In this document: positions 14,793 to 63,482 of the stretch, piece by piece
How the letters are laid out: the number at the start of each line of letters is the position of its first letter
How positions within the stretch are numbered: the stretch's first letter is position 1
IMG/VR virus record: IMGVR_UViG_3300000303_000014
Span: 1 to 63,482 of that record
Source of the DNA: a virus
Direction: 5' to 3' (one strand)
DNA: 63,482 nt
Notes under the pieces: generated by a model
What the model was told of the DNA's origin: nothing
Seen by the model: the letters and a program-made list of their open reading frames with translations, nothing else
The model's database searches: none
Program-made: the position numbers and the translations under genes

Positions 14793-17700
14793 ATGAGCAA
14801 ATCATTAGGAACAATCGGCTTCCGCAAACGTGGAGATTGGAAGCCAAACGAAAAGTACCGCGCCGATGATGCCGTCAACTACGGACGCTCCTTGCTTTAC
14901 GCCAAAGTTGACCATACGAGCGGTGACGAATTTGAACCTGACAAATGGGGATTCATCGCCGACGCAACAGGCGTAGAAGAAATTGCGGAGCGTGCCGAAG
15001 CCGCCGCCACACTTGCCGAAACCAACGGAACCGAAGCAGGATTGCAGGCTCAAGCCGCAAAGAAAGCAGCGGAACAGGCAACAGAGCAAACTGAAGCGGC
15101 AAAAGCCGCCACAGGTATTTTCACGGAAAATTTCAAGTTCGTTGAAAGCGATGACTTTCTTTATGCCATTGCGGATAACCTTGGCAACCTACTTTGGGGC
15201 ATACGAAAAGACGGTTCAGTATTCCAGCCACGGGGCATATCAGAAGAAGCCCGGAAACGCCTTGAGGAATTATCCGGATTGCAAATTGTAGAAGATGACA
15301 ACTACATATTCGCAATAACGGACTCCGATGGTAACTTGCTTTTTGCCATAGACCGCAAGGGAGGCAGTGTAATCAACAAACTCAGCGGCGTATGTTCGAT
15401 TGAGCAGTATGAGGGCAGCGAATACATATTCTGCGTGATGGACAGTGCGGACAACCTTTTGTTCGGCATTAAACGTGACGGAAGTTTCGTCACATCGAAA
15501 TTCGAACTTCCTTCAGACATACTAAAACAGTTGAAGAAATTGTCGGCAAACGGTATGGAAACGGACGAGCAAGACCAAGAATTCATTTATAAGATACTTG
15601 ACAAGGACGGCCTTATCGTATTTGCTGTAAAATGGGACGGTACATCCTATATGCCTAAAGGCATACCCGAAGAGCAAAAAGCGGAAAACCGCAAATTGAA
15701 CCGTAAGTTAAGCGATTTGGAAAAATCGATTGCAAATTTCACAGGAGGAACAGGCGATTGGAGCGACGCCTCATATATGCAGGTTCCGCTTCCACGCTGT
15801 GCGAAGTTCAACATCCTGTCTGACAGGATGCCGACAGCGAAAAGCGGACTTGGCACTCCCGGTGTCACTTGTGATATTCCTTGCCAAGTGGAATTTTGGG
15901 ATATGCAGGGCAACTATTTCAAGAAATGGGTGCTTTTGTCAGCACAAGGCAATTCCAGCATGGCATTCACGAAAAAGAACCTTGCCATGGACTTTTACGT
16001 CACTCGTGAAGATATGCTCAATGACGATGAGAAGTTCAAGATGAAGTTCGGTGACTGGGTAGCCCAAGACAGTTTCCACCTGAAAGCCTATTACACCGAT
16101 ACATTCAGAGGCGTAGGCGCATGTAGCTACCTGTTGTATGAAGAAATGGTAAAAACGCGCAATATCAAAGACAACCGTCCTTACAAGGCCGCTTTCACAG
16201 GCGACTACGGCACCAGCGAACAGGGTGTTGACAGCATTGACGACTTGGACAAGAATTTCGACACTGGTGCAAAATGCTTCCCGATGCCATTTCCTGTGAT
16301 TGTATATCAAAACGGAGAGTTCTACGGCATCTATTCATGGCAGATGAAGAAAGACCGCGACAACATGTGGCAAAGCAAGAAAAAGGCCAAGCACGTACAT
16401 TTGGACGGAACTCTCGGCGCAGACACCATTTGGGGAGGAAACATCAACTGGACCGCTTTCGAGGTGAGAAATCCCAAAGACCTCATTGACATTGACGGTG
16501 AGGACTATGACGGCGACCACCCCAAAGAGCTTACAGGTGACATTGAGGTTGACGAGAAAACGGCAGAAGTAAAGCAATACATCATTGACCTGAGCGGCCG
16601 TATCGCAGAACTGAAAGCAGCAGAAAGCGCAAAGGAAGTATCAACCATCCAAAGCGACTATAACACGATCACAACAAATAATACGCATACGTCATCCACC
16701 GGATTGAACGTACTGCGCAGCGTGGCATTCATCGGTAAAGACGAATGGCTGGTATATCTGACAAAGGACGAAACCGGTACCAACGACAGCAAACTGATGA
16801 ACTACTACACCGAACGCCTAAATACGGCTAACGGCGTAGCAGCCTTTGCCCAGAAATACCCGGAAATCAGCGTTCCTAATTATGCCGCAAAGGTATGGGA
16901 AGACAGCGCACTTGTCAATGAAAGCGTGTGGAATACATTGTTGGCACAAGCAGGACTTGACGGCTATACGCTTAACTTCAACGGCAATACGGGAAATGTT
17001 TATCCGACAGGCAAGGAAATCTCCCTTGCTTCTCCGACTGACGAATACCCATACCTTAAAATTGTCAAGGCTCACGACCTCATTTCAGCAATGGAAGAAT
17101 ACCTTGCCACAGCCAATGAGGAAATGAGGACACTCATCGGGAAATACTTCATGCCTTCATTCATGGTTGACTATATCCTTGAAACCAACCTTGTAAGCGA
17201 CGGTGACGGTTACAACAAAAACTGGCAATGGACCACATGGGACGGTGAGTTGTGGACAGCCAATCCATACGACCACGACGGCATTTTCGGAGCATACCAC
17301 ATAGGAAACTTTGTAAACAGCCCCGGCAGCGGATGGTTGGGAAATTCAACGAGCATACCATCGGGGTGGATAATCAAGTATTTCATGCCCGAACTGAAAT
17401 CCCGCTATGCGGAACTGCGTACAAAGGGGATATTCGATGCAGCCCATATTGCCGGAATCATAATGGACTGGTGCTTGCGCATAGGCTACGACAACTTTGA
17501 ATCGGAATACGAGCGTTGGCCGGAATCCCCCTGCAACCGTCCAAGCCTGATAAACAGTGATAACTGGACGCGAAGCACCAGCTATGTATCATCCACATGG
17601 GCTGAAGGAACGACCTATTCAAAAAACGGAACGTGTAAAAAAGGCAGTAAAGTATATAAAAGCCTTATGTCGGGGAATATCGGCAACGACCCCGAAACAG

Positions 17701-17972
17701 ACGATGGTACGCATTGGGAAGATGTCACATACGATGAGGCCAAGAGCTATGCCGAAAATGAAGTATGTTATTACGGAAAAACAACGTTCTACGGCTTCAA
17801 ATGTATCTCCCCATGCCAAGGCATACCACCGTTGAGCGGCTTCTACACAATCTATCCTTATGAACTCGGTCATTACGACAGCGTTTACAGGGTGCAGAAT
17901 TGGCTTGAGCAGCGTATCAAGTACATGGACACATTACTTGGTTACACATCGGCATCAACAAACAAGGAATAA
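14793..17972 (+). CDS. Large tail protein with three parts: the same N-terminal repeats, a CotH-like domain, and a C-terminal CBM5/12-like carbohydrate-binding motif
   Basis: The repeats include DFLYAIADNLGNLLWGIRKDGSVFQPRG and NYIFAITDSDGNLLFAIDRKG. The CotH-like blocks are FHLKAYYTDTFRGVGACSYLLYEEM, PVIVYQNGEFYGIYSWQMKKDR and YNKNWQWTTWDGELWTANPYDHDGIFG. The C-terminus reads GTCKKGSKVYKSLMSGNIGNDPETDDGTHWEDV. Confidence 0.6.
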   Translation: MSKSLGTIGFRKRGDWKPNEKYRADDAVNYGRSLLYAKVDHTSGDEFEPDKWGFIADATGVEEIAERAEAAATLAETNGTEAGLQAQAAKKAAEQATEQTEAAKAATGIFTENFKFVESDDFLYAIADNLGNLLWGIRKDGSVFQPRGISEEARKRLEELSGLQIVEDDNYIFAITDSDGNLLFAIDRKGGSVINKLSGVCSIEQYEGSEYIFCVMDSADNLLFGIKRDGSFVTSKFELPSDILKQLKKLSANGMETDEQDQEFIYKILDKDGLIVFAVKWDGTSYMPKGIPEEQKAENRKLNRKLSDLEKSIANFTGGTGDWSDASYMQVPLPRCAKFNILSDRMPTAKSGLGTPGVTCDIPCQVEFWDMQGNYFKKWVLLSAQGNSSMAFTKKNLAMDFYVTREDMLNDDEKFKMKFGDWVAQDSFHLKAYYTDTFRGVGACSYLLYEEMVKTRNIKDNRPYKAAFTGDYGTSEQGVDSIDDLDKNFDTGAKCFPMPFPVIVYQNGEFYGIYSWQMKKDRDNMWQSKKKAKHVHLDGTLGADTIWGGNINWTAFEVRNPKDLIDIDGEDYDGDHPKELTGDIEVDEKTAEVKQYIIDLSGRIAELKAAESAKEVSTIQSDYNTITTNNTHTSSTGLNVLRSVAFIGKDEWLVYLTKDETGTNDSKLMNYYTERLNTANGVAAFAQKYPEISVPNYAAKVWEDSALVNESVWNTLLAQAGLDGYTLNFNGNTGNVYPTGKEISLASPTDEYPYLKIVKAHDLISAMEEYLATANEEMRTLIGKYFMPSFMVDYILETNLVSDGDGYNKNWQWTTWDGELWTANPYDHDGIFGAYHIGNFVNSPGSGWLGNSTSIPSGWIIKYFMPELKSRYAELRTKGIFDAAHIAGIIMDWCLRIGYDNFESEYERWPESPCNRPSLINSDNWTRSTSYVSSTWAEGTTYSKNGTCKKGSKVYKSLMSGNIGNDPETDDGTHWEDVTYDEAKSYAENEVCYYGKTTFYGFKCISPCQGIPPLSGFYTIYPYELGHYDSVYRVQNWLEQRIKYMDTLLGYTSASTNKE

Positions 17973-17981
17973 CAAGAGAGA

Positions 17982-19646
17982 ATGACTAATCGATTTATCA
18001 ACGTCCAAAAAAACAAGATTATGGCAAAAGGATTGAAAATTCAACTTCCTTCGGCAGTCACAGACGCAGAGGGATTGCACAAGCTCGAACATTATTACGG
18101 TATCGAGTTCACGCGCGGAGCGAGCAACGGCGGCGGCGACAACGGCTACCACAAAATGATTGGCGATGAAACGCTATTGAAGGAAATGCGTTTCCATAAC
18201 CAAATGAAAATTGTAACCGTCGGCAAGGACGCAGCCATTAAGAGTACGCTCAACCAAGTGAACTGGAACAAAATGGACAGCGGCGATGCTTCTGTCATTG
18301 ACGGCAGCGATGACACGGATGTAATCCAAGCACACACCAAGAACGTGTACGCCATCATAGGCGGAACAAACCCGACCTACGAGCGTTACATCGTGTCAGA
18401 CCAGCCTTTCACCTATGACGGGGACGAAGCAAAAGAGTATCTTGCCTACGGTGAAACTCCCGACTACGTTACATTGCTGAACGGTGTAGTGCGTTCAATT
18501 CGCAATGATGACGTGGACGGAACCCACGGAGCAGGAAACGGAACGAACCACAGCAGCGCAGGATATGGCACGGCAGAAGCCGGCGGCTACCCAAAAACAC
18601 AGTTAAGCCGTTTTGCGTTCGAGCAATATGCAAGAGCAAAAAACACCGACCCGAACAGCAACCTTCCGTATATGAACATCTGTAATCAGGATGTCGAATT
18701 GACACAAGCATTCATGTTCATCGAGTTCAGGACGAAACAGCTCAACGGCATACTCGGTCACGGCATGTCAACCGTCTCCATACCCACGAAAGAAACTTGG
18801 GGAAAAGTGAGCGGCTTCCGTATCACTACCGACAACGGTGCTACATATAAGTATGTAGGACTTGGCACGAACCTCTACCTCAACAGTTCAACAACAGGCA
18901 CTACCATGTGGGCAATCCTCAACGGCTCATGCCCGCTGCTCAAGATGTTCGAGGCACAATTGGCCGTATCAAACGGTGACACGCTTGAAGCCGTGAACAA
19001 CTCGGACGGCGAACCGGTACAAGGCTTGTCTGACGGCGTAATGACAGGTATTTGGACAAAGACGTTCTCATTCAAGGTGAACGCTTCGCTCACATCCGGC
19101 GGCGCTCCTGAACTGCTCAGCGTGGATGCTGTATTGCGTGTTCCCGTATGGCGCGGCAGAACACGCCTGTGGGGAAACTGCTCACAATGGTACAGTGGTT
19201 ATGAACTCCTGCGTTACCTTGACGAAGGTGGTCTGACCCATCACAAGATTTACCGCTCGCCCAGCGTGGAAGCATTGGTAAAAGACAGCGATGTTACAGA
19301 CAAGACGGAAGAAGGACAGTTTGAATTCGAGAAAAAATACAACTATCTCGGAGAATTGCCTACCATCACCGTAGATGCCGGATATTGGGCAAAAGAGACC
19401 CATAAGGACGGCGACATATCCACTCCATTGGTAAAGACCGGCGGAGGCGCACTCAGCACCTACGAGAGTGCATTCTTCTGGGCGCAGAAACACCCCACAG
19501 CAGGTACGTACTCCCGTCGTGGTACTCTCTTTGGCGGCTATGCGAACGAGAGTCTTGCCGCCCTCCGTTTCGCGACTTGCTTCAATTCGCCCTCGCTTGC
19601 GTTCACGAACCTCGGTTCCGGCTTCCGTGTGGAGCTTTCCGACTGA
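17982..19646 (+). CDS. DGR target protein, a probable receptor-binding tail protein with a C-terminal variable region
   Basis: A 554-aa ORF; an alternative ATG lies at 18021. The last 40 or so codons are the VR, reading RGTLFGGYANESLAALRFATCFNSPSLAFTNLGSGFRV, a pattern typical of C-type-lectin-fold DGR targets. Confidence 0.8.
   Translation: MTNRFINVQKNKIMAKGLKIQLPSAVTDAEGLHKLEHYYGIEFTRGASNGGGDNGYHKMIGDETLLKEMRFHNQMKIVTVGKDAAIKSTLNQVNWNKMDSGDASVIDGSDDTDVIQAHTKNVYAIIGGTNPTYERYIVSDQPFTYDGDEAKEYLAYGETPDYVTLLNGVVRSIRNDDVDGTHGAGNGTNHSSAGYGTAEAGGYPKTQLSRFAFEQYARAKNTDPNSNLPYMNICNQDVELTQAFMFIEFRTKQLNGILGHGMSTVSIPTKETWGKVSGFRITTDNGATYKYVGLGTNLYLNSSTTGTTMWAILNGSCPLLKMFEAQLAVSNGDTLEAVNNSDGEPVQGLSDGVMTGIWTKTFSFKVNASLTSGGAPELLSVDAVLRVPVWRGRTRLWGNCSQWYSGYELLRYLDEGGLTHHKIYRSPSVEALVKDSDVTDKTEEGQFEFEKKYNYLGELPTITVDAGYWAKETHKDGDISTPLVKTGGGALSTYESAFFWAQKHPTAGTYSRRGTLFGGYANESLAALRFATCFNSPSLAFTNLGSGFRVELSD
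19517..19631 (+). repeat. DGR variable repeat (VR)
   Basis: A 115-bp repeat with 100 matches to the TR. All 15 mismatches lie opposite TR adenines. Confidence 0.9.
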
Positions 19647-19682
19647 CGAACGGCGAAACCCAAGACGAAAACCGAAAACCTA

Positions 19683-19704
19683 CCTCTCCGCTCCGGCGGA
19701 GAGG
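19683..19704 (+). promoter_or_regulatory. Hairpin downstream of the VR, a candidate DGR target-recognition element
   Basis: cctctccgc-tccg-gcggagagg forms a 9-bp perfect stem with a 4-nt loop, about 50 nt after the VR end. There is no T-run. It is flanked by T-poor A/C-rich repeats. Confidence 0.5.
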
Positions 19705-19793
19705 TCTTAAACCGAAAACGCAACCCAAGCCTAAACCGAAAGCCGGACGTGGCTGTAGGGAGGACAACGATTTCAAAATTAAAATTAGAGAAT

Positions 19794-20120
19794 ATGGAAA
19801 GACAAATTTATTTTGCAGAGAAGCCCCAGCCTTTAGAATGGGGAGAAAAAAGAATAGTTCCTCTGAACATTAATGAGGAAGTGACCGTAGGCAGCGACGG
19901 TGCCATGCGAAAAGGCTACCGGGCCGACCTTGTGCCGAAAGTGAAGCAGCCGCTGACGGTTGAAAACATTGTTGACGCGGCCATCGCCGCAGAATACAGC
20001 GAAGATGCGTTGAAGCGCATCATGCGCAACTTGGCCAAAAGCGATGACGCGGAAGTGGAGAAATACAAATCTTTCGTGAAAGAAATCACCGAAGCGGCCA
20101 AGGAGGCAGGTTATGAATAA
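19794..20120 (+). CDS. Hypothetical acidic protein in the position normally occupied by DGR avd
   Basis: A 109-aa ORF from ATG 19794 (MERQIYFAEKPQPLEWGEK...); the listed 19749 start is GTG. It lies between the VR and the TR and does not resemble a basic four-helix-bundle Avd. Confidence 0.55.
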   Translation: MERQIYFAEKPQPLEWGEKRIVPLNINEEVTVGSDGAMRKGYRADLVPKVKQPLTVENIVDAAIAAEYSEDALKRIMRNLAKSDDAEVEKYKSFVKEITEAAKEAGYE

Positions 20121-20134
20121 AAAGTAGAGTTGTC

Positions 20135-20172
20135 GGGAAGTCCTGAAACGGGATGACCATTCAGGACTTCCC
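20135..20172 (+). terminator. Hairpin between the accessory ORF and the TR
   Basis: gggaagtcctga (20135..20146) pairs with tcaggacttccc (20161..20172), a 12-bp perfect stem with a 14-nt loop. Confidence 0.4.
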
Positions 20173-20203
20173 TCTCTTACTCCGGCAACGGTTGTCTGTG
20201 TAA

Positions 20204-20318
20204 TCGTGGTACTCACTTTGGCGGCAATGCGAACGAGAGTAATGCCGCCCTCCGTTACGCGAATTGCAACAATTCGCCCTCGAATGCGAACACGAACATC
20301 GGTTCCAGCTTACGTGTG
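20204..20318 (+). repeat. DGR template repeat (TR)
   Basis: A noncoding copy of the VR that would read RGTHFGGNANESNAALRYANCNNSPSNANTNIGSSLRV, rich in AAT/AAC codons. It lies 210 nt upstream of the RT gene. Confidence 0.9.
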
Positions 20319-20528
20319 AAAGCAAAAAAACAGAAAGAGTACATTCACAGAGACCCCACCAGCATGGTGAAAAACGACAGACAAGACAACGGGAAGGTTA
20401 TCAATTAACATCCACAGACGAGGTTGTCCGCTTATTAGTAAACAACCGTTTGTATGGTTGTTGGAAGTTAGCGAAAAAGGCTCACACGGGCACTTTGGTA
20501 AAAATAGTAATGCACAAAGTAGCTATCA

Positions 20529-21827
20529 ATGAAAAGATTGAAGAATGTTTGGAGTAAGATATGTGACGAATCACTTTTGAGGGATGCCATCTTGAACGCC
20601 TCGAAAGGCAAGATGAAATACCGCAAGGTAAGAAGGAAGGTGAAGCGAGTGGACATATACGCCAAAAAGCTATCGGACATGCTTGCAAGCGGTAAATTCA
20701 CTCCATCGCCTTACAAGGTGGACAAGATAAAGACAGAATACGGCAAGGAAAGGGAGATATTCAAGTTGCCGTTCTACCCGGACAGATGCGTACAACACGG
20801 CATAAGCATAGTAATGCGTCCGAGATGGGACAAAAGCCTTACGGCGGACACATACGCCTGCCTGAAAGACAGAGGAATAAACTGCAAGAAACGAAGATTC
20901 AACCTGAACCGCAAGGTAAGAAGTGCCATACGCAGCTATAAGCATAGGAAAGTGTATGTACTGAAGATAGACGTAAAGAAATGTTATCCAAGCGTTGACA
21001 ACGCCATACTTGCCGAGCGATACAGAAGGTATTGTGCCGACCCGTCGATGTTACGCCTTATGGATGACATCAACCATAACGGCAAAGGACTTCCGATAGG
21101 CAATTTCCTCTCGCAACTGTGGATAAACATCTACTTGGCACCATTGGACAGGTTTGTGAAAGAAGTGCTTAAAGCAAGACACTACTTCCGCTATATGGAT
21201 GACATAGTGATACTCTGCGAGGACAAGGCGACACTGCACGAATGGATGTGGAGAATACAAAATTTCCTTTGGTATGTGTTGCACTTGGAACTTAACTCTA
21301 AACGTCAGATATTCCCTTTGGGGTACAACCTGACGGAAAGAGGGCTGGACTTTGCCGGTTATGTGTTCCGTCATGACAGCACGATGGTAAGAAAACGCAT
21401 CAAGCAAGCCTTTGCACGGAGAAGGCACAAGCCAAAGAGCATACCAAGCTATATGGGTATCCTGCAACATTGCGATTCGAAAAACTTAGTAAACAAAATC
21501 GTAAAAAGAGACAATGACATGGAATTATCAGAACTGTTGAAAAGAAAGATTGAACGTCCGTTCGAGGGCGACAACATAAAGATAGAGGCCATTGTTGACC
21601 GGCCGATTGAAGTGTTGGACTTCCAAGTGCGGCCCAGCGAGAAGAAGCCGAACACCGACTACCTGAAGATGCAGATACGCTTCGAGGGAAAGAAGCGTTT
21701 TGTAGGCGGCGGTTACCAATTCCTGTGTGAAGTGTTGAAGCAGATAGACAAGAGCAACCTTCCGTTCAACACCATTATCCGCAACAAGCGCGGGTATTAC
21801 TTTGAGGGTACAATAGACGAGGAATAA
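20529..21827 (+). CDS. DGR-type reverse transcriptase with a C-terminal extension
   Basis: It carries LPIGNFLSQLWINIYL (the DGR-specific [ILV]GxxxSQ motif), the catalytic motif YMDDIVIL, and the fingers motif FYPDRCVQHGI. At 432 aa it has roughly 110 aa beyond the thumb region. Confidence 0.9.
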   Translation: MKRLKNVWSKICDESLLRDAILNASKGKMKYRKVRRKVKRVDIYAKKLSDMLASGKFTPSPYKVDKIKTEYGKEREIFKLPFYPDRCVQHGISIVMRPRWDKSLTADTYACLKDRGINCKKRRFNLNRKVRSAIRSYKHRKVYVLKIDVKKCYPSVDNAILAERYRRYCADPSMLRLMDDINHNGKGLPIGNFLSQLWINIYLAPLDRFVKEVLKARHYFRYMDDIVILCEDKATLHEWMWRIQNFLWYVLHLELNSKRQIFPLGYNLTERGLDFAGYVFRHDSTMVRKRIKQAFARRRHKPKSIPSYMGILQHCDSKNLVNKIVKRDNDMELSELLKRKIERPFEGDNIKIEAIVDRPIEVLDFQVRPSEKKPNTDYLKMQIRFEGKKRFVGGGYQFLCEVLKQIDKSNLPFNTIIRNKRGYYFEGTIDEE

Positions 21828-21831
21828 GACC

Positions 21832-22389
21832 ATGTTGTTTGACCATGATTCTGTAATGGAAACTGGCACGAGAGCCGTAGGCATATCCCTGTTCGGCAGC
21901 GAGCTGGTAAGCGTGATGACGGACGCACGCTGGATGCTGCTTGCCATCACCATTTGCGTAATGGCGGACTTCCGCTACGGTTGGGGAGAGAGCAGCAAGC
22001 GATACAAGCGGGCTAAGGAGAAAGGCGATAAAATCGTCATGGCGCAGTATAAATGGCGCACGTCAAGGGCAATGCGCCGGACGGTGAACAAGCTCATTGA
22101 TTACTTTATGTGGGTAACGTTGGGCATGTTCTTCGGCTGGGCGATACTGAAACCGTTGGGTGTGGATCACGTTATGGGCGGAGTCGTCGCCACGGCTGTT
22201 GCCATAGCGTGTGAGGCAAAATCTTTCTGCGGCCACTTCTTCTACCTGCACGGAATAAAGATAGAAGAAAAGTCGGTGAAAGGATTTCTACGTGCTTTTG
22301 TAGTAGCCTTTGCCAAGCGAAAGAACGAGGACTTGGGCGAGGCTTTGGAAGAGGGATTTAACAGTAACGATAAAACAGAAACGAAATGA
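21832..22389 (+). CDS. Holin (three predicted TM segments)
   Basis: A 185-aa ORF with hydrophobic segments WMLLAITICVMADF, FMWVTLGMFFGWAIL and GGVVATAVAIACEA and a charged C-terminus. It overlaps the amidase gene in an ATGA arrangement. Confidence 0.55.
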   Translation: MLFDHDSVMETGTRAVGISLFGSELVSVMTDARWMLLAITICVMADFRYGWGESSKRYKRAKEKGDKIVMAQYKWRTSRAMRRTVNKLIDYFMWVTLGMFFGWAILKPLGVDHVMGGVVATAVAIACEAKSFCGHFFYLHGIKIEEKSVKGFLRAFVVAFAKRKNEDLGEALEEGFNSNDKTETK

Positions 22390-22829
22390 GAAGTATCAAA
22401 AGGATTTTCGTGCATTGCACGGCAGGGAGCCAGCGTCAGACGGTGGCAGACCTTCAGGCAGAGTTCAAGCGTAAGGGATGGAAACACCCCGGCTATCACT
22501 ATGTGGTTCAGTCTGACGGGAAAATCACCCAGTTGCTCGGCGAACAATTCGTGAGCAACGGCGTGAAAGGCTACAATTCGACGGCCATCAATGTGGCCTA
22601 TATGGGTGGCATTGACGCAGAGGGAAAGGCCACGGACAACCGCACGGACGCGCAGAAAGAGAGTCTGCGGAAGCTGCTGAAACTGCTGAAAAGCCGTTAC
22701 CCCAAAGCGGAGATAATGGGACACAGGGACATCAGTCCGGACACGAACGGCAACGGAAAAGTGGACAGTTGGGAAAGGATTAAGGAGTGCCCCTGCTTTG
22801 ACGCTAAGGAAGAGTATAAAGAGATATGA
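22386..22829 (+). CDS. N-acetylmuramoyl-L-alanine amidase endolysin (T7 lysozyme / PGRP family)
   Basis: IFVHCTAG, GYHYVVQSDG, GYNSTAINVAYMGG, MGHRD and ECPCFD align with the conserved blocks of T7 lysozyme. Confidence 0.85.
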   Translation: MRSIKRIFVHCTAGSQRQTVADLQAEFKRKGWKHPGYHYVVQSDGKITQLLGEQFVSNGVKGYNSTAINVAYMGGIDAEGKATDNRTDAQKESLRKLLKLLKSRYPKAEIMGHRDISPDTNGNGKVDSWERIKECPCFDAKEEYKEI

Positions 22830-23353
22830 GAGCACTGGGAAGAATGGGGCAAATGAGCCTGATCACGTTGGCTGTTATGGCGGCTATCCTATTGGCCGGA
22901 TGCAGGAGCGTGAAGTATGTGCCGGTGTACATACAGAACGACAGCACGGAAACCCACGTAAAGACTGTGACGGAATACGTTAAGGACACGTTGCCCGTCA
23001 AGATACCTGCACAGACGGCAGAACGGACAACCGCCGACACAACGAGCCATCTTGAAAACGACTATGCAGAAAGCTACGCACGTATCAATCCGGACGGAAC
23101 GCTGTACCACAGCCTGATGACGAAGCCACAAGACTTGGAGGTGGAGTATGACAAGCCCATACAGCGTACGGACAGCATCGTCAACAGGAAAGGCACGACC
23201 ACCGTTGTACGCACCGTGGAAGTGGAACGCGAACTGACGTGGATAGAACAGGGGCAGATATACGGCTTCCGCATATTGGCCGTACTTATCACCGTATGGC
23301 TGATATGGAGGTACAGGAGCAAGATAACAAACCTAATACGCAAACTGATATGA
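22826..23353 (+). CDS. Unimolecular spanin-like lipoprotein
   Basis: It has a lipobox (LLAGC) after a signal peptide and a single C-terminal TM (FRILAVLITVWLIWRY). It lies directly after the endolysin with an ATGA overlap. Confidence 0.55.
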   Translation: MRALGRMGQMSLITLAVMAAILLAGCRSVKYVPVYIQNDSTETHVKTVTEYVKDTLPVKIPAQTAERTTADTTSHLENDYAESYARINPDGTLYHSLMTKPQDLEVEYDKPIQRTDSIVNRKGTTTVVRTVEVERELTWIEQGQIYGFRILAVLITVWLIWRYRSKITNLIRKLI

Positions 23354-61300: not shown

Positions 61301-63482
61301 TCCGGAGGATTATATACGCCAAGTCATTTCTACCATTGAAAAGGAGGACGAGGCAAGAATTGCCGCAGAGGAAGCCCGTTATGAGCGGTCAAAGGTAAGG
61401 GCGCAGGAAGATATTGCCAAGCAGACCGAGAAAATCAACCGCCAGCAGAAACGTACCGCCGAAGAAAAGCAAGCCGCCATTGCCGACTACGTGAGAGAGA
61501 CCAATGAGAATGTGGAAACCAAGCATAACGACAACATAGTGCGCCTCAATACGAACAGCGATATGCTGAAACAGCGTCTGCACATGTTTGAAGTCGGGAA
61601 GTCGTACCTCATGCCTGACAATCTTGAAAGCATGGTGTTCGATTTTTCCACGCCAGCCATATTCTGCGGCTACAAAGCAAAGGACAGCAAGATAACCGCC
61701 TCGACCACGCTTGCCGTATTTGCGACCCTTGACGGACGCAGACGTGTTGAAGTCAAACTATCCGATATAGCGGCACTGCGAAGCATCTACAAGACAACCA
61801 ATGACAATTGGGATGCCGCACGTTCCACCACGCTTGAAAACTGGGACAGCCAAATACCGACAGGCACACGAAAGACCGGCTATATCATGACAGGGAACAT
61901 CCTGCAAGCCATTGCCGACACCCAAGACGAAAGAGGAGGTTTCCCCGGCCAGCTTATCAGTTACACCGACATTGACGGGAACGTGCATGACGGCATATTG
62001 ATGCCCGACAAATGGAACAGGTCTATGTTGAAAACCAGCGGTGCGCCCATCATCAGCCGTATCAAACAGATAAAAGATTATATGCCTGTAGCCAGCCATG
62101 ACGGTAAAGTGGAGATTACAGGCAGCAGTTGGGCGAAAATGTATTACCTGACCGTGCCCAAGACGAAAAAAGACGGTGCTGTTTATTACGAGAACAAGAC
62201 GTTGCTTCGTTCCGTCAATGGCGGGAACTTCTATCCTTACCGTGGGAAGTTGCGTGCGGACATTCCGGCAGAGCATATTGAAAGCGTGGTAAAGGAGTTG
62301 TCAAAGTTGGGCGTAAAGGTACAGGAAGAGGATAAAGAGGATGACGTTATGCTTCGTAACGGAAATGGCGCACTGACTGATGATGACTTGGCCAATGCAA
62401 ATGACCCTATGTCCAAGTTGCTGGGCAAGTCCACGAGGACGGCACGGCAGCGAAAGGCATTCGCCGAGCGTGAACGTGGTCGCATGGTGGAACGTGTACG
62501 AGAGCTTGCCGAAACGCTGCATCTTGACAACGTGGACATCGTAACCGATGCGTCCACGTTGCAAGGCAACCGGGCAAAGGCCAAAGGCTTCTATTCACGC
62601 AGTACAGGACGCATTACGATAGTTATACCGAATCAAACGAGCGTGTTCGATGCGGAACAGACACTGCTGCATGAAGCCGTGGCCCACTACGGACTTCGTG
62701 AGTTGTTCGGCGAGCATTTCGACACGTTCCTTGATAACGTGTTCCAAAATGCCGATACGGATGTGCGCAGACACATTGTAGAGCTGGCAGAACGGCGCGG
62801 TTGGGATTTCAGGACGGCCACTGAGGAATACTTGGCATCATTGGCCGAGAATACGAATTTCGAGAACGTTAATGCAAGCTGGTGGAGCAAGATAAAGGAA
62901 CTGTTCCTACGGATGCTCCACAAGATAGGCTTTGAGGACTTCTCCGGCGTAACCTTGTCGGACAATGAACTCCGCTATATCTTGTGGCGCAGCTACGAGA
63001 ACCTTGCAGAGCCAGGAAGATACCGCAGCATCTTAGGGGAAGCCGCAGACGTGGCCAAACAGCATGAGTTAAAGGTCGGGAACTACGCCGTTGTAAGCAG
63101 TGAGGGCAGAAATGTTGCCGACAATGACCTTTACAGGGACGGCGCACCCGAAGTGCATGAACGTGTGTATGCCCGTAGGCGTTATGAAGAAATGGTAAAA
63201 CGTGGAATGTACCAAGTGCAGGAGGCATTGCAAGACAGTATGCTCGGACTTCGAGAAGCCATGAACGCCATTCTTCGTGGAGAAGGTAAGAAAAAGGTGA
63301 ATATCGAGGACGTGGACGGCTTCGAGAACGCCTACTTAGGAGAAAACAGGTTGTCTTCGGTCAACAAGGCCGAAGCGGACGCTTTCGCCCACCTGCTGTT
63401 TAAGCCGCTGCTGGACGAAGTGGCCAAACTTGCGCCCAACGAAGATGCACGGATAACGCTCACTGATTACATGATGGCAAAG
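49305..63482 (+). CDS. Giant polyvalent protein, N-terminal 4,726 codons within the window. The ORF continues through the junction to 2706, for about 5,609 aa in total.
   Basis: It starts at the first ATG after an in-frame TAA at 49290. None of the + strand ORFs the track lists between 49305 and the window end lies in this frame, consistent with a frame that runs off the end without a stop. I hand-translated several segments and they are coding. All long antisense ORFs in this span are shadows. Confidence 0.85.
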   Translation, partial: MPNKITYTITTSDGKSHQVSEENINKYGMQSYASAYKGATIRMRDKDGADYDIPLGNYDDAQRQGLHPFRFNHTPDNTDIRQEREPQETQNTQTQEQKPWKPTAQQRAVMTANLEGISRSAQRTMEDFNERMDNLQEYGKRFGGGQTVSGGLRFNPGTKKMERTYLTPTGDRTFNKGAADKVSREYREAVDTTVGGQIRRAQRRLEELQEKARQRQQEIHDKWEQDYTNNKAPLAAVLAADTYVPSFDSDQTYRALQVAIRQTQEQLKTLQEQQDRDNGVDVGFWRGFGRAAGDIRSWDFGIGDMKDALTMLRASDDKHGLPPTDQEKEANQEMLKAIHENQQTEAMYGGNASFWNRAGMMTGYMPSFMVDFALTGGGFEGINLATRAAGKAATKMLGKEAVKEMAEQGFKMYVKRNGLKGLGQEAANWTVKALGTTADELLIRAPLMTNTVQLGDTAADIIDRKLGDVEVDENGNYDFTNDKTWGSAVWQGEANSIIENYSEMFGTHLPEAASLENLGRLANVIGAKRLSGVLSRANAGALGGITDTTRRIFGQMGVSDYLGEVSEEYYGQLWRTMLNLDDAYQQNADGTRTNLFATGQFHGDIWGGMALSMGLMGAGKATLSGANYLAMKHDVNKADARAGELLTPEIWEPLRSTIDMATNDNVGDVAETIINDKELTNEEKAAVMNYMERSLYLRGANLSELVNSRGGVQDERKQQANDSYIDGYNAQSGEEMQDARNMYELQRQKAEQALSPEMLAEIDADPIGALQDLVDDSEAGQTAIDYINAKQVYDGMIQRVRDDIDSRIDQSNAMIDSRVNRASGMIQGATMKVQNDDGKDRRVYVLDGNLATLPDGAGIDHENSDGSIIIRDADTGAIEMVSPDAIFSVEQPIDPETEKMTAAEAIRQQFAAEAAGRIDGVVAFNPGDTYTLTDENGQAVQIQIMANQDGLVDNGDGTVNVSSDGGQTIVPMSKEDIQAMVDATNRARVARLEEERGTIRTQQPTYSLNEEITITDENGNTVRGSITADANEDGQYEVYTEAPINGRKVNLFTAEELDRLRAVSDENFQQNGEGAMENGNNGAENIPQNGNIEPQNIPAPTETLQVDGETLQENLQAGTDGASALERIPKDEQGQPLYEQADPETAWDAIVEQTEGDEAMAQSVADSMVADKEAELKKIEKVKPKTGTTIAEKIAAERERKNAVEQAKANLALWQKIAQTSQRRKQAALAEQSKAAEEAARLRRAEEEKLRAEREEAERIRREALNGVPDFVEDTPQDARARGFRRVNGNKVDRQQAIPTRQGNEVQVKFDDNNIPTGHVSLIDASQLQPSHINGQRNPLHFIDEAQPKERNDEASVMSARKIAANIRPEEITSSVTAYTGAPTVNTRGEVIQGNNRSAALREMWAEHPEQATKYKQYLTEHAADFGLAPEDVEAMQQPVLVNMVDVPDDEAISLGQFVAQDTESGGTERIKPKNIVQKMGDDMKGFAGRLLASPDEEMTFSELVDRNGMDVLKWMQAKNYITPTQYRSAFDSKGNLTGEAKNDLKGIMYQSIFQNGNTHLEEMFGALPAKAQKAILATAYRDYDSPNSERMNAELQASINAYYALSQMPDFANAKNYKEARKAAEAWKRQLSFDDVTGESYLPSERYSNFALLLATMYKGQTQVFIQNTLKNIFDLVQGTKEATLFEEPNNTPRTLVEAVNETMNGLSDELLLNENFIYNGQRRNNVLAGGSAAGQQGRQGSGGGTPSGERVEGGDGTADRPGGTGSGSTEEEIERREAELASRVEVSDDDWQEGDNEKPTYKRSILIDGKHTATQVDQPDKDGHYTGSYFEFDNKRFGDIAEIVDYIDSGHTLASKIAQAEAETDTEPTEAQKEAGNYKKGHVRIGQFDITVENPKGSVRRGTDASGKAWEQTMQNTYGYIRGTEGVDGDHIDVFLTNDIDGWNGRRVYIIDQYNEDGTFDEHKVMLGFNDEADAQDAYLSNYEKGWSFKHKLVLSSVNLPDFENWINSSHRKTKPFAEYKSVNKADVSNEPNVPEAGFEIAPAQYTTKRGKVLDMFLVTFAEPLSKEQQRAARELAKAEKGWYDRDKGGFMMRSEESACKLADTITGNEEAVSDAQPLSLADTRKLEEPVMRQVDVEGLMQEIHEKGEAKLSDHFVPQSEQNEGTTPDADKVVDDFRDSTFGKGMSIEDYLETVSDVALDVLEEAYKDNNNITAAIEQEKWFRKNNARRDTKPQQVNIEGLVDDLRESGEAKLSDHFVPQPEQKEENYTQKTENSEQEEGNAYGASNKLVSRERYEQLKARMRNKLGGQLNMGIDPEILAIGTEMAAYHIEAGARKFADYATHMIADLGDAIRPYLKSFYNGARDLPEVQESGLAGEMTAYDEVRTFDVANFDKGHSDALATAEMVVQEQEADKQADEAKEKLINQRNEQRRKEDEQTTADTTAIASKAEAVASKAESDIEAAATEQQVNNAVESIDKQLEEVNKQLALLGYYEAEPVESDFNEAYGYMRNAEKKAVKDANNLAKRLVNDLGIDPNKIVDKKGKKRRSIATANIAPAGGEISIYLPLSSEANLYLSIGLAPTYDRKASTPLINRGKGGRWEGDNLEVEHIMYRIEQPNSNGSERYGSNNFADTDVTYSDLLKDIRRISKKYLPIKEEAKEESGEKNKPKDAKNKKKSVSSQTQVADLFGGLFEENASTETVASQGNELNRKFAMTVKDDMLAALDNGTKPYRSILDLRKRASGLGMEVDNDGRTDILLQELVEDGLVRAAREVAERHGSDSRETYDLICKLYEMQPTIAARSSNRIKMQQYSTPLPMAWNASRFVMTGKKDGKVLEPTAGNGMLVFAIPAGQVHANELDGTRLANLREQGFAQVTQQDATEPFEGGEQYDVVIANPPFGRREAVDYDGKLISGLDPQITLNALASMKDDGRAAIIIGGNMGYGANGAINNMKPFFTYLYDHYNVKGVVDMDGSLYAKQGTTYPTRMILIDGRRSDEERAQSAVYPPVQSKAIRKADSFEALYDIIDEVINSKDKTNGTEILRSQQGQLVSVTDKPSRNTDGKGHREQPRTNDDARSRGRERRNKPENNSGRSQQVLPRERREDNRNGETRNEVSGNTAGGSRGVSEPDVQRVGAVGASTERVGLIPQRTTEQPKKRTLTEEKSAYRPHNSAFSLQSVAPAAMVEAMDRVLSQIEEKHGSIDEFVRKELGYDTIDEAHQALAAEQIDSVAMAIYQMKQGQALIIGDQTGVGKGRQMAALIRWAVKRGEKPIFITQKADLFSDIYRDLVDIGSGDLVPFIFNSDGAMVDSNGNTVHKPLSSKEMAKVFATGVLPDEYDFAVLTYSQVNTGDEVSQKEMEEAAKKNGARSKKSKNVKSGKATPKATFLRAIAEDNYLFLDESHTAAGSSNTGAYLQSILRSAKAATFASATFAKRPDTMPLYAIRTAMSQAKVEPDKLISIIEKGGVTLQEIMSRELTNAGQMVRRERDMSDVVTDWKTINDPETVRRARENYDRTIAAFNAIIKFQEDYVKPMVDAMDKELAVMAESAGIKRGTDKMGVENVPFASKTYNYTKQLMLALKVDAIANEVDAEIKAGRHPVIALESTMESSIKDYSAGEVIAEPTFSASLLRGLDTVMQYTIKDENGKEQHARYSPKQLGSAGEKAYYELQDFIRESTSDIFISPLDAIIERLHDMGYKVGELTGRNLYVERDSEGRVVVKRRTDKDKKRMQREFNNGELDVLILNKSASTGISLHASEKFSDQRQRTMIIAQPLSDINDYMQMIGRIDRTGQVHRGYYINLGLPVPAENRFLMMLSTKLKSLNANTTTSQDSESNEVEAPDLLNKYGSQVVVEYLRDNPDIYDKMGTPLKKGGEGGGRVQTSELDEYKPQEDDARKITGYVALLTTQEQEEFYDDVVRRYNELIKYLNDTGNNDLKITVMPLRAKTLEKRVSSEGIDPTGANPFAQNSYVEQVEMDVLRKPMKAAEIRKTIEQVNKGKRPEDYIRQVISTIEKEDEARIAAEEARYERSKVRAQEDIAKQTEKINRQQKRTAEEKQAAIADYVRETNENVETKHNDNIVRLNTNSDMLKQRLHMFEVGKSYLMPDNLESMVFDFSTPAIFCGYKAKDSKITASTTLAVFATLDGRRRVEVKLSDIAALRSIYKTTNDNWDAARSTTLENWDSQIPTGTRKTGYIMTGNILQAIADTQDERGGFPGQLISYTDIDGNVHDGILMPDKWNRSMLKTSGAPIISRIKQIKDYMPVASHDGKVEITGSSWAKMYYLTVPKTKKDGAVYYENKTLLRSVNGGNFYPYRGKLRADIPAEHIESVVKELSKLGVKVQEEDKEDDVMLRNGNGALTDDDLANANDPMSKLLGKSTRTARQRKAFAERERGRMVERVRELAETLHLDNVDIVTDASTLQGNRAKAKGFYSRSTGRITIVIPNQTSVFDAEQTLLHEAVAHYGLRELFGEHFDTFLDNVFQNADTDVRRHIVELAERRGWDFRTATEEYLASLAENTNFENVNASWWSKIKELFLRMLHKIGFEDFSGVTLSDNELRYILWRSYENLAEPGRYRSILGEAADVAKQHELKVGNYAVVSSEGRNVADNDLYRDGAPEVHERVYARRRYEEMVKRGMYQVQEALQDSMLGLREAMNAILRGEGKKKVNIEDVDGFENAYLGENRLSSVNKAEADAFAHLLFKPLLDEVAKLAPNEDARITLTDYMMAK
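53235..53530 (+). other. DdrB-like ParB/sulfiredoxin-superfamily domain within the giant protein
   Basis: The hand translation reads HVSLIDASQLQPSHINGQRNP...EAQPKERNDEASVMSARKIAANIRPEEITSSVTAYTGAPTVNTRGEVIQGNNRSAALREMW. It matches the LQPRDR...GAPIV...GNGR pattern of polyvalent-protein ParB domains. Confidence 0.55.
54936..55125 (+). other. Inorganic-pyrophosphatase-like module within the giant protein
   Basis: The hand translation reads GNYKKGHVRIGQFDITVENPKGSVRRGTDASGKAWEQTMQNTYGYIRGTEGVDGDHIDVFL. It resembles the family I PPase core (E.P.G...YG.IP.T...DGDP.DV). Confidence 0.4.
57740..58300 (+). other. N6-adenine DNA methyltransferase domain within the giant protein
   Basis: It carries QQYSTP, motif I VLEPTAGNG (57813..57839), and motif IV NPPF (57996..58007). 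Confidence 0.8.
58980..60700 (+). other. Strawberry-notch/SNF2-like superfamily 2 helicase domain within the giant protein
   Basis: It carries motif I GDQTGVGKGRQ (59043..59075), motif II DESH (59502..59513), and LILNKSASTGISLHA followed by QMIGRIDRTGQ (60648..60680). Confidence 0.8.
62560..62790 (+). other. Zincin-like metallopeptidase domain (polyvalent-protein type) within the giant protein
   Basis: The region reads AKGFYSRSTGRITIVIPNQTSVFDAEQTLLHEAVAHYGLRELFG. The HEAVAH motif lies at 62670..62687. Confidence 0.6.
63429..63482. repeat. Terminal direct repeat, copy 2 (identical to 1..54)
   Basis: Exact 54-nt identity with the window start. It implies a unit length of 63,428 bp. Confidence 0.9.

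Follow-up and report, generated by a model that had tools for sequence, protein, structure and literature searches.

Does the pair of 115-nt repeats near the tail genes of the virus record IMGVR_UViG_3300000303_000014 belong to a working diversity-generating retroelement (DGR), and, if it does, to which kind and with which parts? The stretch analyzed here, referred to as the window, comprises positions 1 to 63,482 of that IMG/VR record (63,482 nt, one strand). An initial annotation, made from the sequence alone, had described the segment 17982-21827 as a complete DGR, in which a reverse transcriptase (RT) would use a template repeat (TR) to diversify a variable repeat (VR) in a tail-module protein. 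Our analysis assigns a probability of roughly 0.93 to the reading that the locus is a functional DGR of the Bacteroidales/crAss-like phage type, devoid of the accessory protein Avd, and that it diversifies a tail-module protein resembling the DGR variable protein TaqVP. The anatomy of the repeats, the class of the RT, the restriction of the variation to adenines, the fold match of the target and the covariation of the RNA come directly from the data, and they are presented below, with the coordinates of the main features collected in Table 1.

A direct recount of the VR and the TR, which are offset by 687 nt, yielded 100 identities and 15 mismatches, and the same pair was reported as the top family (D1) by an independent repeat finder. 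Every mismatch corresponds to an adenine in the TR (positions 20215, 20226, 20241, 20242, 20257, 20263, 20268, 20269, 20283, 20284, 20289, 20290, 20298, 20307 and 20312), so that 15 of its 27 adenines are affected and no other base differs. The coordinates, counts and positions listed in the initial annotation were therefore reproduced exactly, including the lack of any non-A mismatch. Considering only the composition of the TR, the probability that 15 of 15 mismatches would fall on adenine by chance is (27/115)^15 = 3.6e-10. As had been described, the VR forms the end of the 554-aa coding sequence, where it covers codons 512-550, and the TR is non-coding and ends 210 nt before the start of the RT gene at position 20529. 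Codon positions 1-2 hold 26 of the 27 TR adenines and AAY accounts for nine of the 38 TR codons, which is the usual design of DGRs and avoids the creation of stop codons. The 25 adenines of the mutable tract define a repertoire of ~1.1e15 DNA sequences and 6.3e14 peptide sequences.

Thirteen of the mismatches can be retained as products of mutagenesis. The two 3'-most differences (20307 A>G and 20312 A>C) are the same in all four phages with a window-type cassette and in 15 protein variants, where they belong to the sequence GSGFRV, and they recur in most of the relatives L003-L011 (56-83% identity); the exception seen is L005, in which the TR itself already has G at the position equivalent to 20307. 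Moreover, among the window-type VRs, the protein variants and the relatives compared, there is no mutated adenine 3' of 20298. Thus, the differences at 20307 and 20312 are probably fixed markers of the boundary between the initiation-of-mutagenic-homing element of the VR (IMH) and its TR counterpart (IMH*), rather than a result of mutagenesis, and the initial annotation, which took all 15 for diversification, holds for 13 of them. Alternatively, the same fixed pattern could be produced by selection for the lectin-type GFR motif, with which the VR ends.

Comparison with natural relatives allowed us to assess the activity of the element. Among 78 related loci, about 60 contain a VR/TR pair with a strong A bias, nearly all of its mismatches being located at TR adenines, and 60 encode an RT; some of the others are truncated or have no RT. 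Two groups can be distinguished: the relatives of the window, with contigs of ~60 kb, and a second group, whose contigs reach 98 kb and whose targets and RTs are about 33% and 46% identical, respectively, to those of the window. Three IMG/VR phage contigs (L001, L002 and L010) are particularly close, with target proteins 97-98% identical to that of the window. The TR is 100% identical in all four genomes, while the four VRs are all different: in L001, L002 and L010 they depart from the TR at 16, 18 and 8 positions, respectively, and altogether 57 out of 57 VR/TR mismatches are located at TR adenines, with 23 of the 27 adenines used. In the flanking 10 kb, these phages differ from the window at 0-3 positions per 200 nt, with the exception of two recombination patches. 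The number of mutable adenines changed in the four phages (13, 14, 16 and 6 of 25) fits the median mutation density of ~50% reported for Bacteroides DGRs (bioRxiv 10.1101/2024.11.15.621889). At the protein level, the target of the window sits in a 90%-identity cluster of 89 sequences, and each of the 15 listed members that were compared exhibits 10-15 differences in residues 515-544 versus 1-4 in the other 511 residues; the variable residues correspond exactly to codons that contain TR adenines. The adenine-restricted polymorphism, for which the initial annotation had suggested a search among sequencing reads, is therefore found across independent assemblies, and the element is a bona fide, recently active DGR.

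It could be argued that the cassette is a fossil, no longer capable of retrohoming, whose VR/TR differences date from earlier activity. Such a scenario recalls the situation of some close relatives within the second group, which have no RT or only a remnant of it (L021, L024, L054 and others), as well as the many incomplete cassettes reported in published surveys of crAss-like phages, and it would agree with the negative outcome of a promoter search near the cassette (see below). Against it stand an intact RT open reading frame (ORF) with all catalytic motifs kept, the integrity of all RNA elements, and the occurrence of at least 19 different VRs in genomes that are otherwise ~99% identical and share an identical TR, from which it follows that the VR turns over faster than the background diverges. 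We regard the fossil scenario as very improbable.

The RT gene encodes a protein of 432 aa, whose translation contains both LPIGNFLSQ and YMDD, in agreement with the motifs named in the initial annotation and with the DGR signatures [I/L]GxxxSQ (motif 4) and YxDD. It matches RVT_1 as well as phrog_1423 (E-value 4.7e-90), and among the solved structures the best match is 8ub7 (6e-27), with the sequence 100% identical to that of Brt from Bordetella phage BPP-1, while retron and group II RTs are reported with values of 2e-6 or weaker. The scores obtained with the NCBIfam models of group II RTs (TIGR04416: 89.8 bits, cut-off 300) and of retron St85 (37.8 bits, cut-off 235) are far below the thresholds of these families. 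Sequence comparisons hence place the protein with the DGR RTs and not with the RTs of group II introns or retrons, a grouping that the initial annotation had named as one that would speak against a DGR.

The C-terminal part of the RT (residues ~340-432) is conserved in related RTs, including that of Hankyphage, and revealed no match in Pfam or among PDB sequences; its sequence pattern tentatively suggests the order beta1-3, helix, beta4-5, which would be OB-like. Cassettes with short RTs (~330 aa) show the order RT, acidic protein and then an ORF of 104-105 aa, and the stand-alone ORFs of this kind in L085 and L089 were identified as homologous to the extension of the window RT (hhalign 99%, E-values 1.7e-18 and 3.1e-17). 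An exhaustive search with the extension as a query reported 124 representative clusters. A length of up to 135 aa was recorded for 114 of these, while RT fusions of at least 400 aa account for only five; the stand-alone forms exhibit a median isoelectric point (pI) of 9.0. Judging from this homology, a small and mostly basic protein, which in most cases is encoded by a gene of its own, is present in the window as a part of the RT, and the fusion provides evidence for a functional link between this module and the RT.

The target is a functionally uncharacterized protein without any match in Pfam, NCBIfam or PHROG and without sequence similarity to any solved structure; a protein search with the target found nothing, and DNA searches of GenBank phages with the locus returned nothing useful. 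Its AlphaFold2 (AF2) model, built from 46 homologues, has a mean predicted local distance difference test (pLDDT) value of 90.8, and its only significant matches in the PDB are three chains of TaqVP from Thermus aquaticus (5vf4, E-values 3.7e-6 to 1.3e-5, probability 1.00), with Mtd of BPP-1 (1yu4) at rank 7. The sequence identity to TaqVP amounts to only ~11-12% and the TM-scores to only 0.28-0.44. The target family comprises 157 clusters, and its profile identified (probability 95.9%) a remote homologue in the crAss-like phage cr55_1, namely a "tail protein" whose gene is located before that of the DGR RT. The initial annotation had proposed that the VR region should adopt the fold of a ligand-binding domain; the confident model, whose sole significant structural match is a DGR variable protein, speaks for this prediction. 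According to the model, the target also matches the published "domain group 2" of DGR targets from Bacteroides prophages (10.1101/2024.11.15.621889).

Analysis of the genomic neighborhood revealed a tail-fibre-like protein and a 1059-aa CotH-like protein (14793-17972) upstream of the target, both named in the initial annotation and recovered by family searches, and a membrane protein, an Amidase_2 endolysin and a lipoprotein downstream of the RT. Since the target sits at the end of the tail module, the likely effect of its diversification would be altered binding to the host or to glycans. The initial annotation went further and proposed receptor-binding diversification; the position in the tail module and the lectin-like fold agree with this, while receptor binding itself is a step that we only infer. 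The diversified protein might instead bind other ligands, for example mucin glycans, or act outside of the virion. This would be compatible with the lack of annotated homologues in our family and protein searches, with the mucus adherence that the authors of the Hankyphage study proposed for their lectin-fold target, and with the presence of the separate CotH-like and fibre-like proteins upstream, either of which could be the primary receptor binder. On the other hand, the gene is the last of the tail-fibre module, close ahead of the lysis genes, cr55_1 has a remote homologue with a tail-protein annotation, and the TaqVP-like group of Bacteroides prophages has been interpreted as tail-fibre components (bioRxiv 10.1101/2024.11.15.621889). 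We therefore consider a role other than binding of the host receptor unlikely, with a chance that is small and yet clearly greater than that of a fossil cassette.

The sequence between the TR and the RT gene is conserved between cassettes whose RTs are only 46% identical. For this 210-nt spacer RNAalifold predicted four helices, in which 14 of 21 pairs show a compensatory change. A further predicted duplex brackets the TR: in an alignment of 14 cassettes 93.8% of the cells are paired, compared to 73% for shuffled sequences (with none of 500 shuffles attaining 93.8%) and 37-50% with the partner strand slid, and 11 of the 15 pairs are compensatory. As conserved motifs served as manual anchors of this alignment, the 3-bp GGY:RCC part of the duplex could be favored, though not its variable helix. 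The minimum free energy fold of 20186-20500 recovered the same RNA elements (z = -2.65), and an Rfam search of the TR/spacer region identified no family. The 27 nt between the TR and the 3' strand of the duplex are A-rich and unstructured and contain no Avd-binding stem-loop, which fits the absence of Avd. In BPP-1, a duplex between the upstream sequence and the spacer, a short stem-loop and unpaired adenosines form the cPRT Stop, which positions and terminates the synthesis of complementary DNA (cDNA); the survey of this element took in only DGRs that contain Avd (10.1101/2023.10.23.563531). The predicted TR-bracketing duplex of the window, together with the hairpin and the A-run that follow it, has the architecture of this Bordetella element. 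Separately, a perfect 13-bp inverted repeat (GGGAAGTCCTGAA ... TTCAGGACTTCCC, plus strand, predicted folding energy -32 kcal/mol) was found at 20135-20172, between the stop codon of the 108-aa ORF described below and the TR-bracketing duplex, and several relatives have a hairpin at that position.

A GC-rich hairpin follows the VR. In most related cassettes a hairpin is located 28-57 nt after the VR, with stems that differ in sequence and yet stay complementary, i.e. covary. The hairpin/cruciform required for retrohoming of BPP-1 has a stem of 7-10 bp and a 4-nt GRNA loop and lies 4-34 bp from the VR (PMC3240598). By analogy, the hairpin of the window may be a candidate target-site hairpin or cruciform, and/or a terminator. 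Four copies of a CCGAAAAC-like motif (CGAAAAC repeats) flank it at 19665-19745, and the same motif flanks the equivalent hairpins in the distant cassettes L089, L085 and L090.

Which protein could assist the RT in this cassette? Avd is encoded by about 70% of DGRs and is not universal. The window contains 92 ORFs with lengths of 95-175 aa, and none of these matches the Avd family (PF05635), so the word "complete" in the initial annotation applies to the target, VR, TR and RT and does not extend to Avd. The 108-aa protein encoded between the VR and the TR was considered as a candidate for Avd and rejected, as it does not match PF05635, is acidic and was modeled as a beta-sheet with helices rather than a four-helix bundle. 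The AF2 model (pLDDT 94.7) exhibits a four-stranded sheet and three helices and found no fold match in the PDB. An alternative-frame ORF at 20264-20557, which covers part of the TR and the spacer, was likewise rejected as a basic accessory protein: it has no family match, the indels in the spacer among relatives are not multiples of three, and the spacer covaries as RNA.

The 108-aa family comprises 37 clusters, or 125 with a profile search, and its members accompany DGR RTs. In the second group of IMG/VR loci the homologue (hhalign 95.6%) is encoded directly after the RT and not before the TR. Eight further members, with identity down to ~25%, were inspected, and in each of them the small gene either comes right after the upstream ORF or overlaps with it; this ORF is a recognized RT in seven (the locus L092 is cut, which makes its upstream ORF uncheckable). 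Taking all divergent contexts together, the small gene adjoins the upstream ORF in 10 out of 10 and a recognized RT in 9 out of 10, and VR/TR pairs with an A bias are present wherever the sequence of the locus is long enough. A Foldseek search of viral models matched the 108-aa protein to uncharacterized proteins of 111 and 114 aa from the crAss-like phages cr55_1 and cr50_1; genes of these lengths are found immediately after the DGR RTs of both phages, their identity with the BFVD entries being assumed from organism and length, and the hidden Markov model (HMM) of the expanded family gave a weak match to cr55_1/cr50_1 proteins. The survey of Wu et al. 2018 (PMC5758913) described a lineage 3 of DGRs without avd and with a small acidic gene, CH1. 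The acidic proteins encoded after the RTs of Hankyphage and Bacteroides phage BS-TP4 (161-168 aa, DUF4376-like) are homologous to each other and probably represent this CH1. They show no detectable homology to the 108-aa family, and the assignment of the 108-aa protein as a CH1/DUF4376 homologue found no support in hhalign or HMM comparisons.

We speculate that the 108-aa protein and the C-terminal module of the RT are dedicated retrohoming cofactors, which replace Avd in this lineage. The proposal is based on linkage and on gene fusion, and we put it forward tentatively, at somewhat less than even odds. It draws on the location of the 108-aa gene inside the cassette here and directly after or overlapping the RT in the second group as well as in seven out of the other eight contexts, on the fold-level relatives in cr55_1 and cr50_1 with genes of matching length right after the DGR RTs, on the occurrence of the module as a separate ~100-aa ORF in split cassettes (RT, acidic protein, module) and as a part of the RT in the window, on the basic character of its stand-alone form, which is shared with Avd, and on the lineage 3 of Wu et al., which lacks avd and possesses the small acidic CH1. 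However, RT-less relatives retain the small gene beside the target, a weak objection, as their genomes are >97% identical and L054 keeps a remnant of the RT, so that the losses must be recent. Further, the target gene is also always present, and linkage of the small gene to the target, as for a chaperone or adaptor, is inseparable from linkage to the RT; unrelated cargo may be carried between the VR and the TR, as exemplified by the RelE/XRE pair of BS-TP4; and no sequence link to CH1 exists. A broader version of the proposal, to which we give slightly less credence still, is that in the Avd-less Bacteroidales/crAss-type DGRs a two-part set of proteins (~100 aa, mostly basic, and ~110 aa, acidic) and a cPRT-Stop-like RNA assume the roles of Avd. 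In the literature searched, no description of either small-protein family as a part of DGRs was found; mention is made there only of the unrelated-looking acidic CH1 and of unexplained C-terminal extensions of RTs.

Returning to the functional Avd-less DGR as the preferred reading, its mode of action might be envisaged as follows. An RNA extending presumably over ~20190-20500 would be transcribed, probably by read-through from the tail operon, because no Bacteroides-type promoter motif was found nearby (the -7 motif TAnnTTTG does not occur in 17700-21900). On folding, this RNA would loop the TR out between the strands of the conserved duplex, after which come the short hairpin and the run of adenosines. 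Starting from a putative priming site, the RT would copy the TR into cDNA and misincorporate nucleotides opposite adenines. The target site would be defined by the invariant 3' segment of the VR and perhaps also by the GC-rich hairpin, if the role suggested for the latter is correct. Each event would change about half of the 25 mutable adenines and thereby recode up to 16 codons, whose products would lie on the ligand-binding face of the TaqVP-like lectin fold and offer about 6e14 possible peptides to a presumed ligand. The 108-aa protein and the fused module of the RT would have supposed, auxiliary roles in this scheme.

Several observations count against this reading. The window encodes neither Avd nor any other characterized accessory protein, and the promoter motif was not found in the interval mentioned. 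The loop of the post-VR hairpin is TCCG and not GRNA, and its distance of 50 nt from the VR is beyond the range of 4-34 bp (PMC3240598). Binding of a receptor is deduced for a target that has no annotated homologue of known ligand, and activity in this particular sample is deduced from variation between assemblies, not from read-level data.

Compared with the mtd/avd/TR/brt cassette of BPP-1, the window shares the adenine-specific transfer from TR to VR, the location of the VR at the C-terminus of a lectin-fold tail-module protein, an RT with IGxxxSQ and YMDD motifs for which Brt is the best solved match, an invariant 3' boundary of the repeats, a GC hairpin after the VR, and a duplex of the TR-upstream sequence with the spacer, after which come a short stem-loop and adenosines, as in the cPRT Stop. 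In contrast to BPP-1, it has neither Avd nor an Avd-binding stem-loop right after the TR, its RT carries the extra C-terminal module of ~100 aa, the cassette includes a small acidic protein, the order is target, small ORF, TR and RT, the hairpin after the VR differs in loop and spacing as stated above, and the target resembles TaqVP and not Mtd.

The Avd-less DGRs of lineage 3 and of crAss-like phages (PMC5758913; PMC7290462; cr55_1 and cr50_1) share with the window a target-TR-RT core without avd, a small acidic gene beside the RT and Bacteroidales hosts. Further, the nearest phage RTs are crAss-like (35-37% identity to the window RT), and cr55_1 possesses, in its tail protein, a remote homologue of the target. 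The window differs from them in that its small gene is positioned between the VR and the TR and not after the RT, and in its backbone, a BS-TP4-like genome of ~63 kb rather than a crAss-like one. The DGR of crAssphage LMMB was assigned to lineage 3 by its authors (PMC7290462), and, going by the lack of avd and by the nearest phage RTs, which include that of LMMB, rather than by a phylogenetic tree, the DGR of the window would fit this type. Hankyphage and BS-TP4, temperate phages of Bacteroides, have RTs with a homologous C-terminal extension, a CotH-like sequence associated with the target, a DGR between the tail and lysis genes, and an acidic small protein, encoded in their case after the RT. 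Unlike the window, where the CotH-like gene (14793-17972) is separate from the target, they fuse CotH and the VR domain into proteins of >2000 aa, and their 161-168-aa, DUF4376-like small protein reveals no detected sequence similarity to the 108-aa family. With TaqVP (5vf4) and the "domain group 2" of Bacteroides prophages (10.1101/2024.11.15.621889) the target shares the phage or prophage setting and the lack of other recognizable domains, and it differs from TaqVP in size (554 aa versus ~380 aa) in addition to the low identity of about 11-12%. The element is thus of a known kind, a further member of the Avd-less Bacteroidales/crAss-type phage DGRs.

On its own, this is one more gut-phage DGR, a very common kind of element, and it leaves the understanding of DGRs unchanged. 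It is a well-resolved example, in which natural variants define the mutable tract, its boundary and the usage of individual adenines. What it adds is a precise map of the parts, evidence for two conserved small proteins as partners (of which one is part of the RT in this case) and a cPRT-Stop-like RNA that covaries although the cassette is without Avd. The acidic protein, the basic and sometimes fused protein and the RNA stop element are testable candidates for the machinery of cDNA synthesis in Avd-less DGRs, a question that has been standing since the 2018 survey, and they are relevant also to the engineering of compact DGR-based mutagenesis tools.

Table 1. Features of the DGR cassette, in window coordinates
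Feature	Position	Strand	Remarks
Target gene, 554-aa variable protein	17982..19646	+	TaqVP-like; C-type-lectin-type VR at the C-terminus
VR	19517..19631	+	mutable tract ~19517-19611; invariant 3' segment (IMH-like) 19612-19631
GC-rich hairpin	19682..19705	+	ACCTCTCCGC tccg GCGGAGAGGT; 10-bp stem, 4-nt loop TCCG, 50 nt after the VR
108-aa acidic protein	19794..20120	+	pI 5.0; small-protein family accompanying Avd-less phage DGR RTs
5' duplex strand bracketing the TR	20190..20200	+	GGTTGTCTGTG; 11 nt, beginning 14 nt upstream of the TR
TR, non-coding	20204..20318	+	27 adenines, 25 of them in the mutable tract; 20299-20318 IMH*-like
Structured spacer	20319..20528	+	3' duplex strand, hairpin, A-run and more predicted helices to ~20495
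3' duplex strand	20346..20355	+	CACAGAGACC; predicted to pair with 20190-20200
Short hairpin, then AAAAA	20357..20369, then 20370..20374	+	directly after the 3' duplex strand
RT core, residues 1 to ~330	20529..21518	+	IGNFLSQ, YMDD
RT C-terminal module, ~100 aa	21519..21827	+	homologous to usually free-standing proteins of ~100 aa, mostly basic

As to the genome that carries the cassette, positions 1-54 of the window recur exactly at 63429-63482, which indicates a circularly closed assembly of ~63.4 kb (a complete genome or one with a terminal repeat) without host flanks. Its genes include those for an integrase-like protein, RecT, an SNF2 helicase and a C5 methylase. In GenBank, the phage closest to it is BS-TP4 (nucleotide identity of 74% over the portal region), which carries a DGR of its own at the equivalent place in the genome. 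The initial annotation described the virus as a temperate Bacteroidales phage; a temperate lifestyle is plausible from the integrase-like ORF and from the description of BS-TP4 as temperate, while the assembly itself contains no host sequence that would bear on integration. In the DGR of BS-TP4 (L079, PQ571277), located at 20757-21878, all 9 VR/TR mismatches coincide with TR adenines, the VR forms the end of a protein of 2645 aa, and the VR and the TR are separated by a RelE/XRE toxin-antitoxin pair.

The lysis cassette of the window (21832-23353) begins 5 nt past the stop codon of the RT. Its first gene encodes a 185-aa multi-pass membrane protein without a family match. The Amidase_2 endolysin follows at 22386-22829, and the third product, 175 aa long, has a lipobox-like LLAGC and, at its C-terminus, a hydrophobic segment, reminiscent of a spanin. 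In the region ~21580-22380, which encompasses the RT module and the gene of the membrane protein, L001 and L010 differ from the window at 20-40 positions per 200 nt, after which collinearity is lost, and L002 is identical to the window for a longer stretch. The pattern points to a mosaic junction where the DGR borders on the lysis genes. A patch in the CotH-like gene (16410-16884) contains 41-53 substitutions relative to the otherwise near-identical L001, L002 and L010; it was considered as a second VR and rejected, as all types of substitutions occur in it and no TR matches it, which identifies it as a recombination mosaic.

Within the second group of loci, one near-identical population includes some genomes with the target, TR, RT and small gene in this order and others without the TR and RT (L021, L024, L036, L054 and ~10 more IMG/VR loci; in L054 the last ~60 codons of the RT are left), hence the DGR is a presence/absence polymorphism there. 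Finally, in L083, a prophage on a 389-kb ENA contig, and also in L084, the small acidic gene of the DGR is followed directly by a tandem array (6351-7158 in L083), in which a 48-nt unit is repeated 16.8 times with higher-order periods of 145 and 289 nt.

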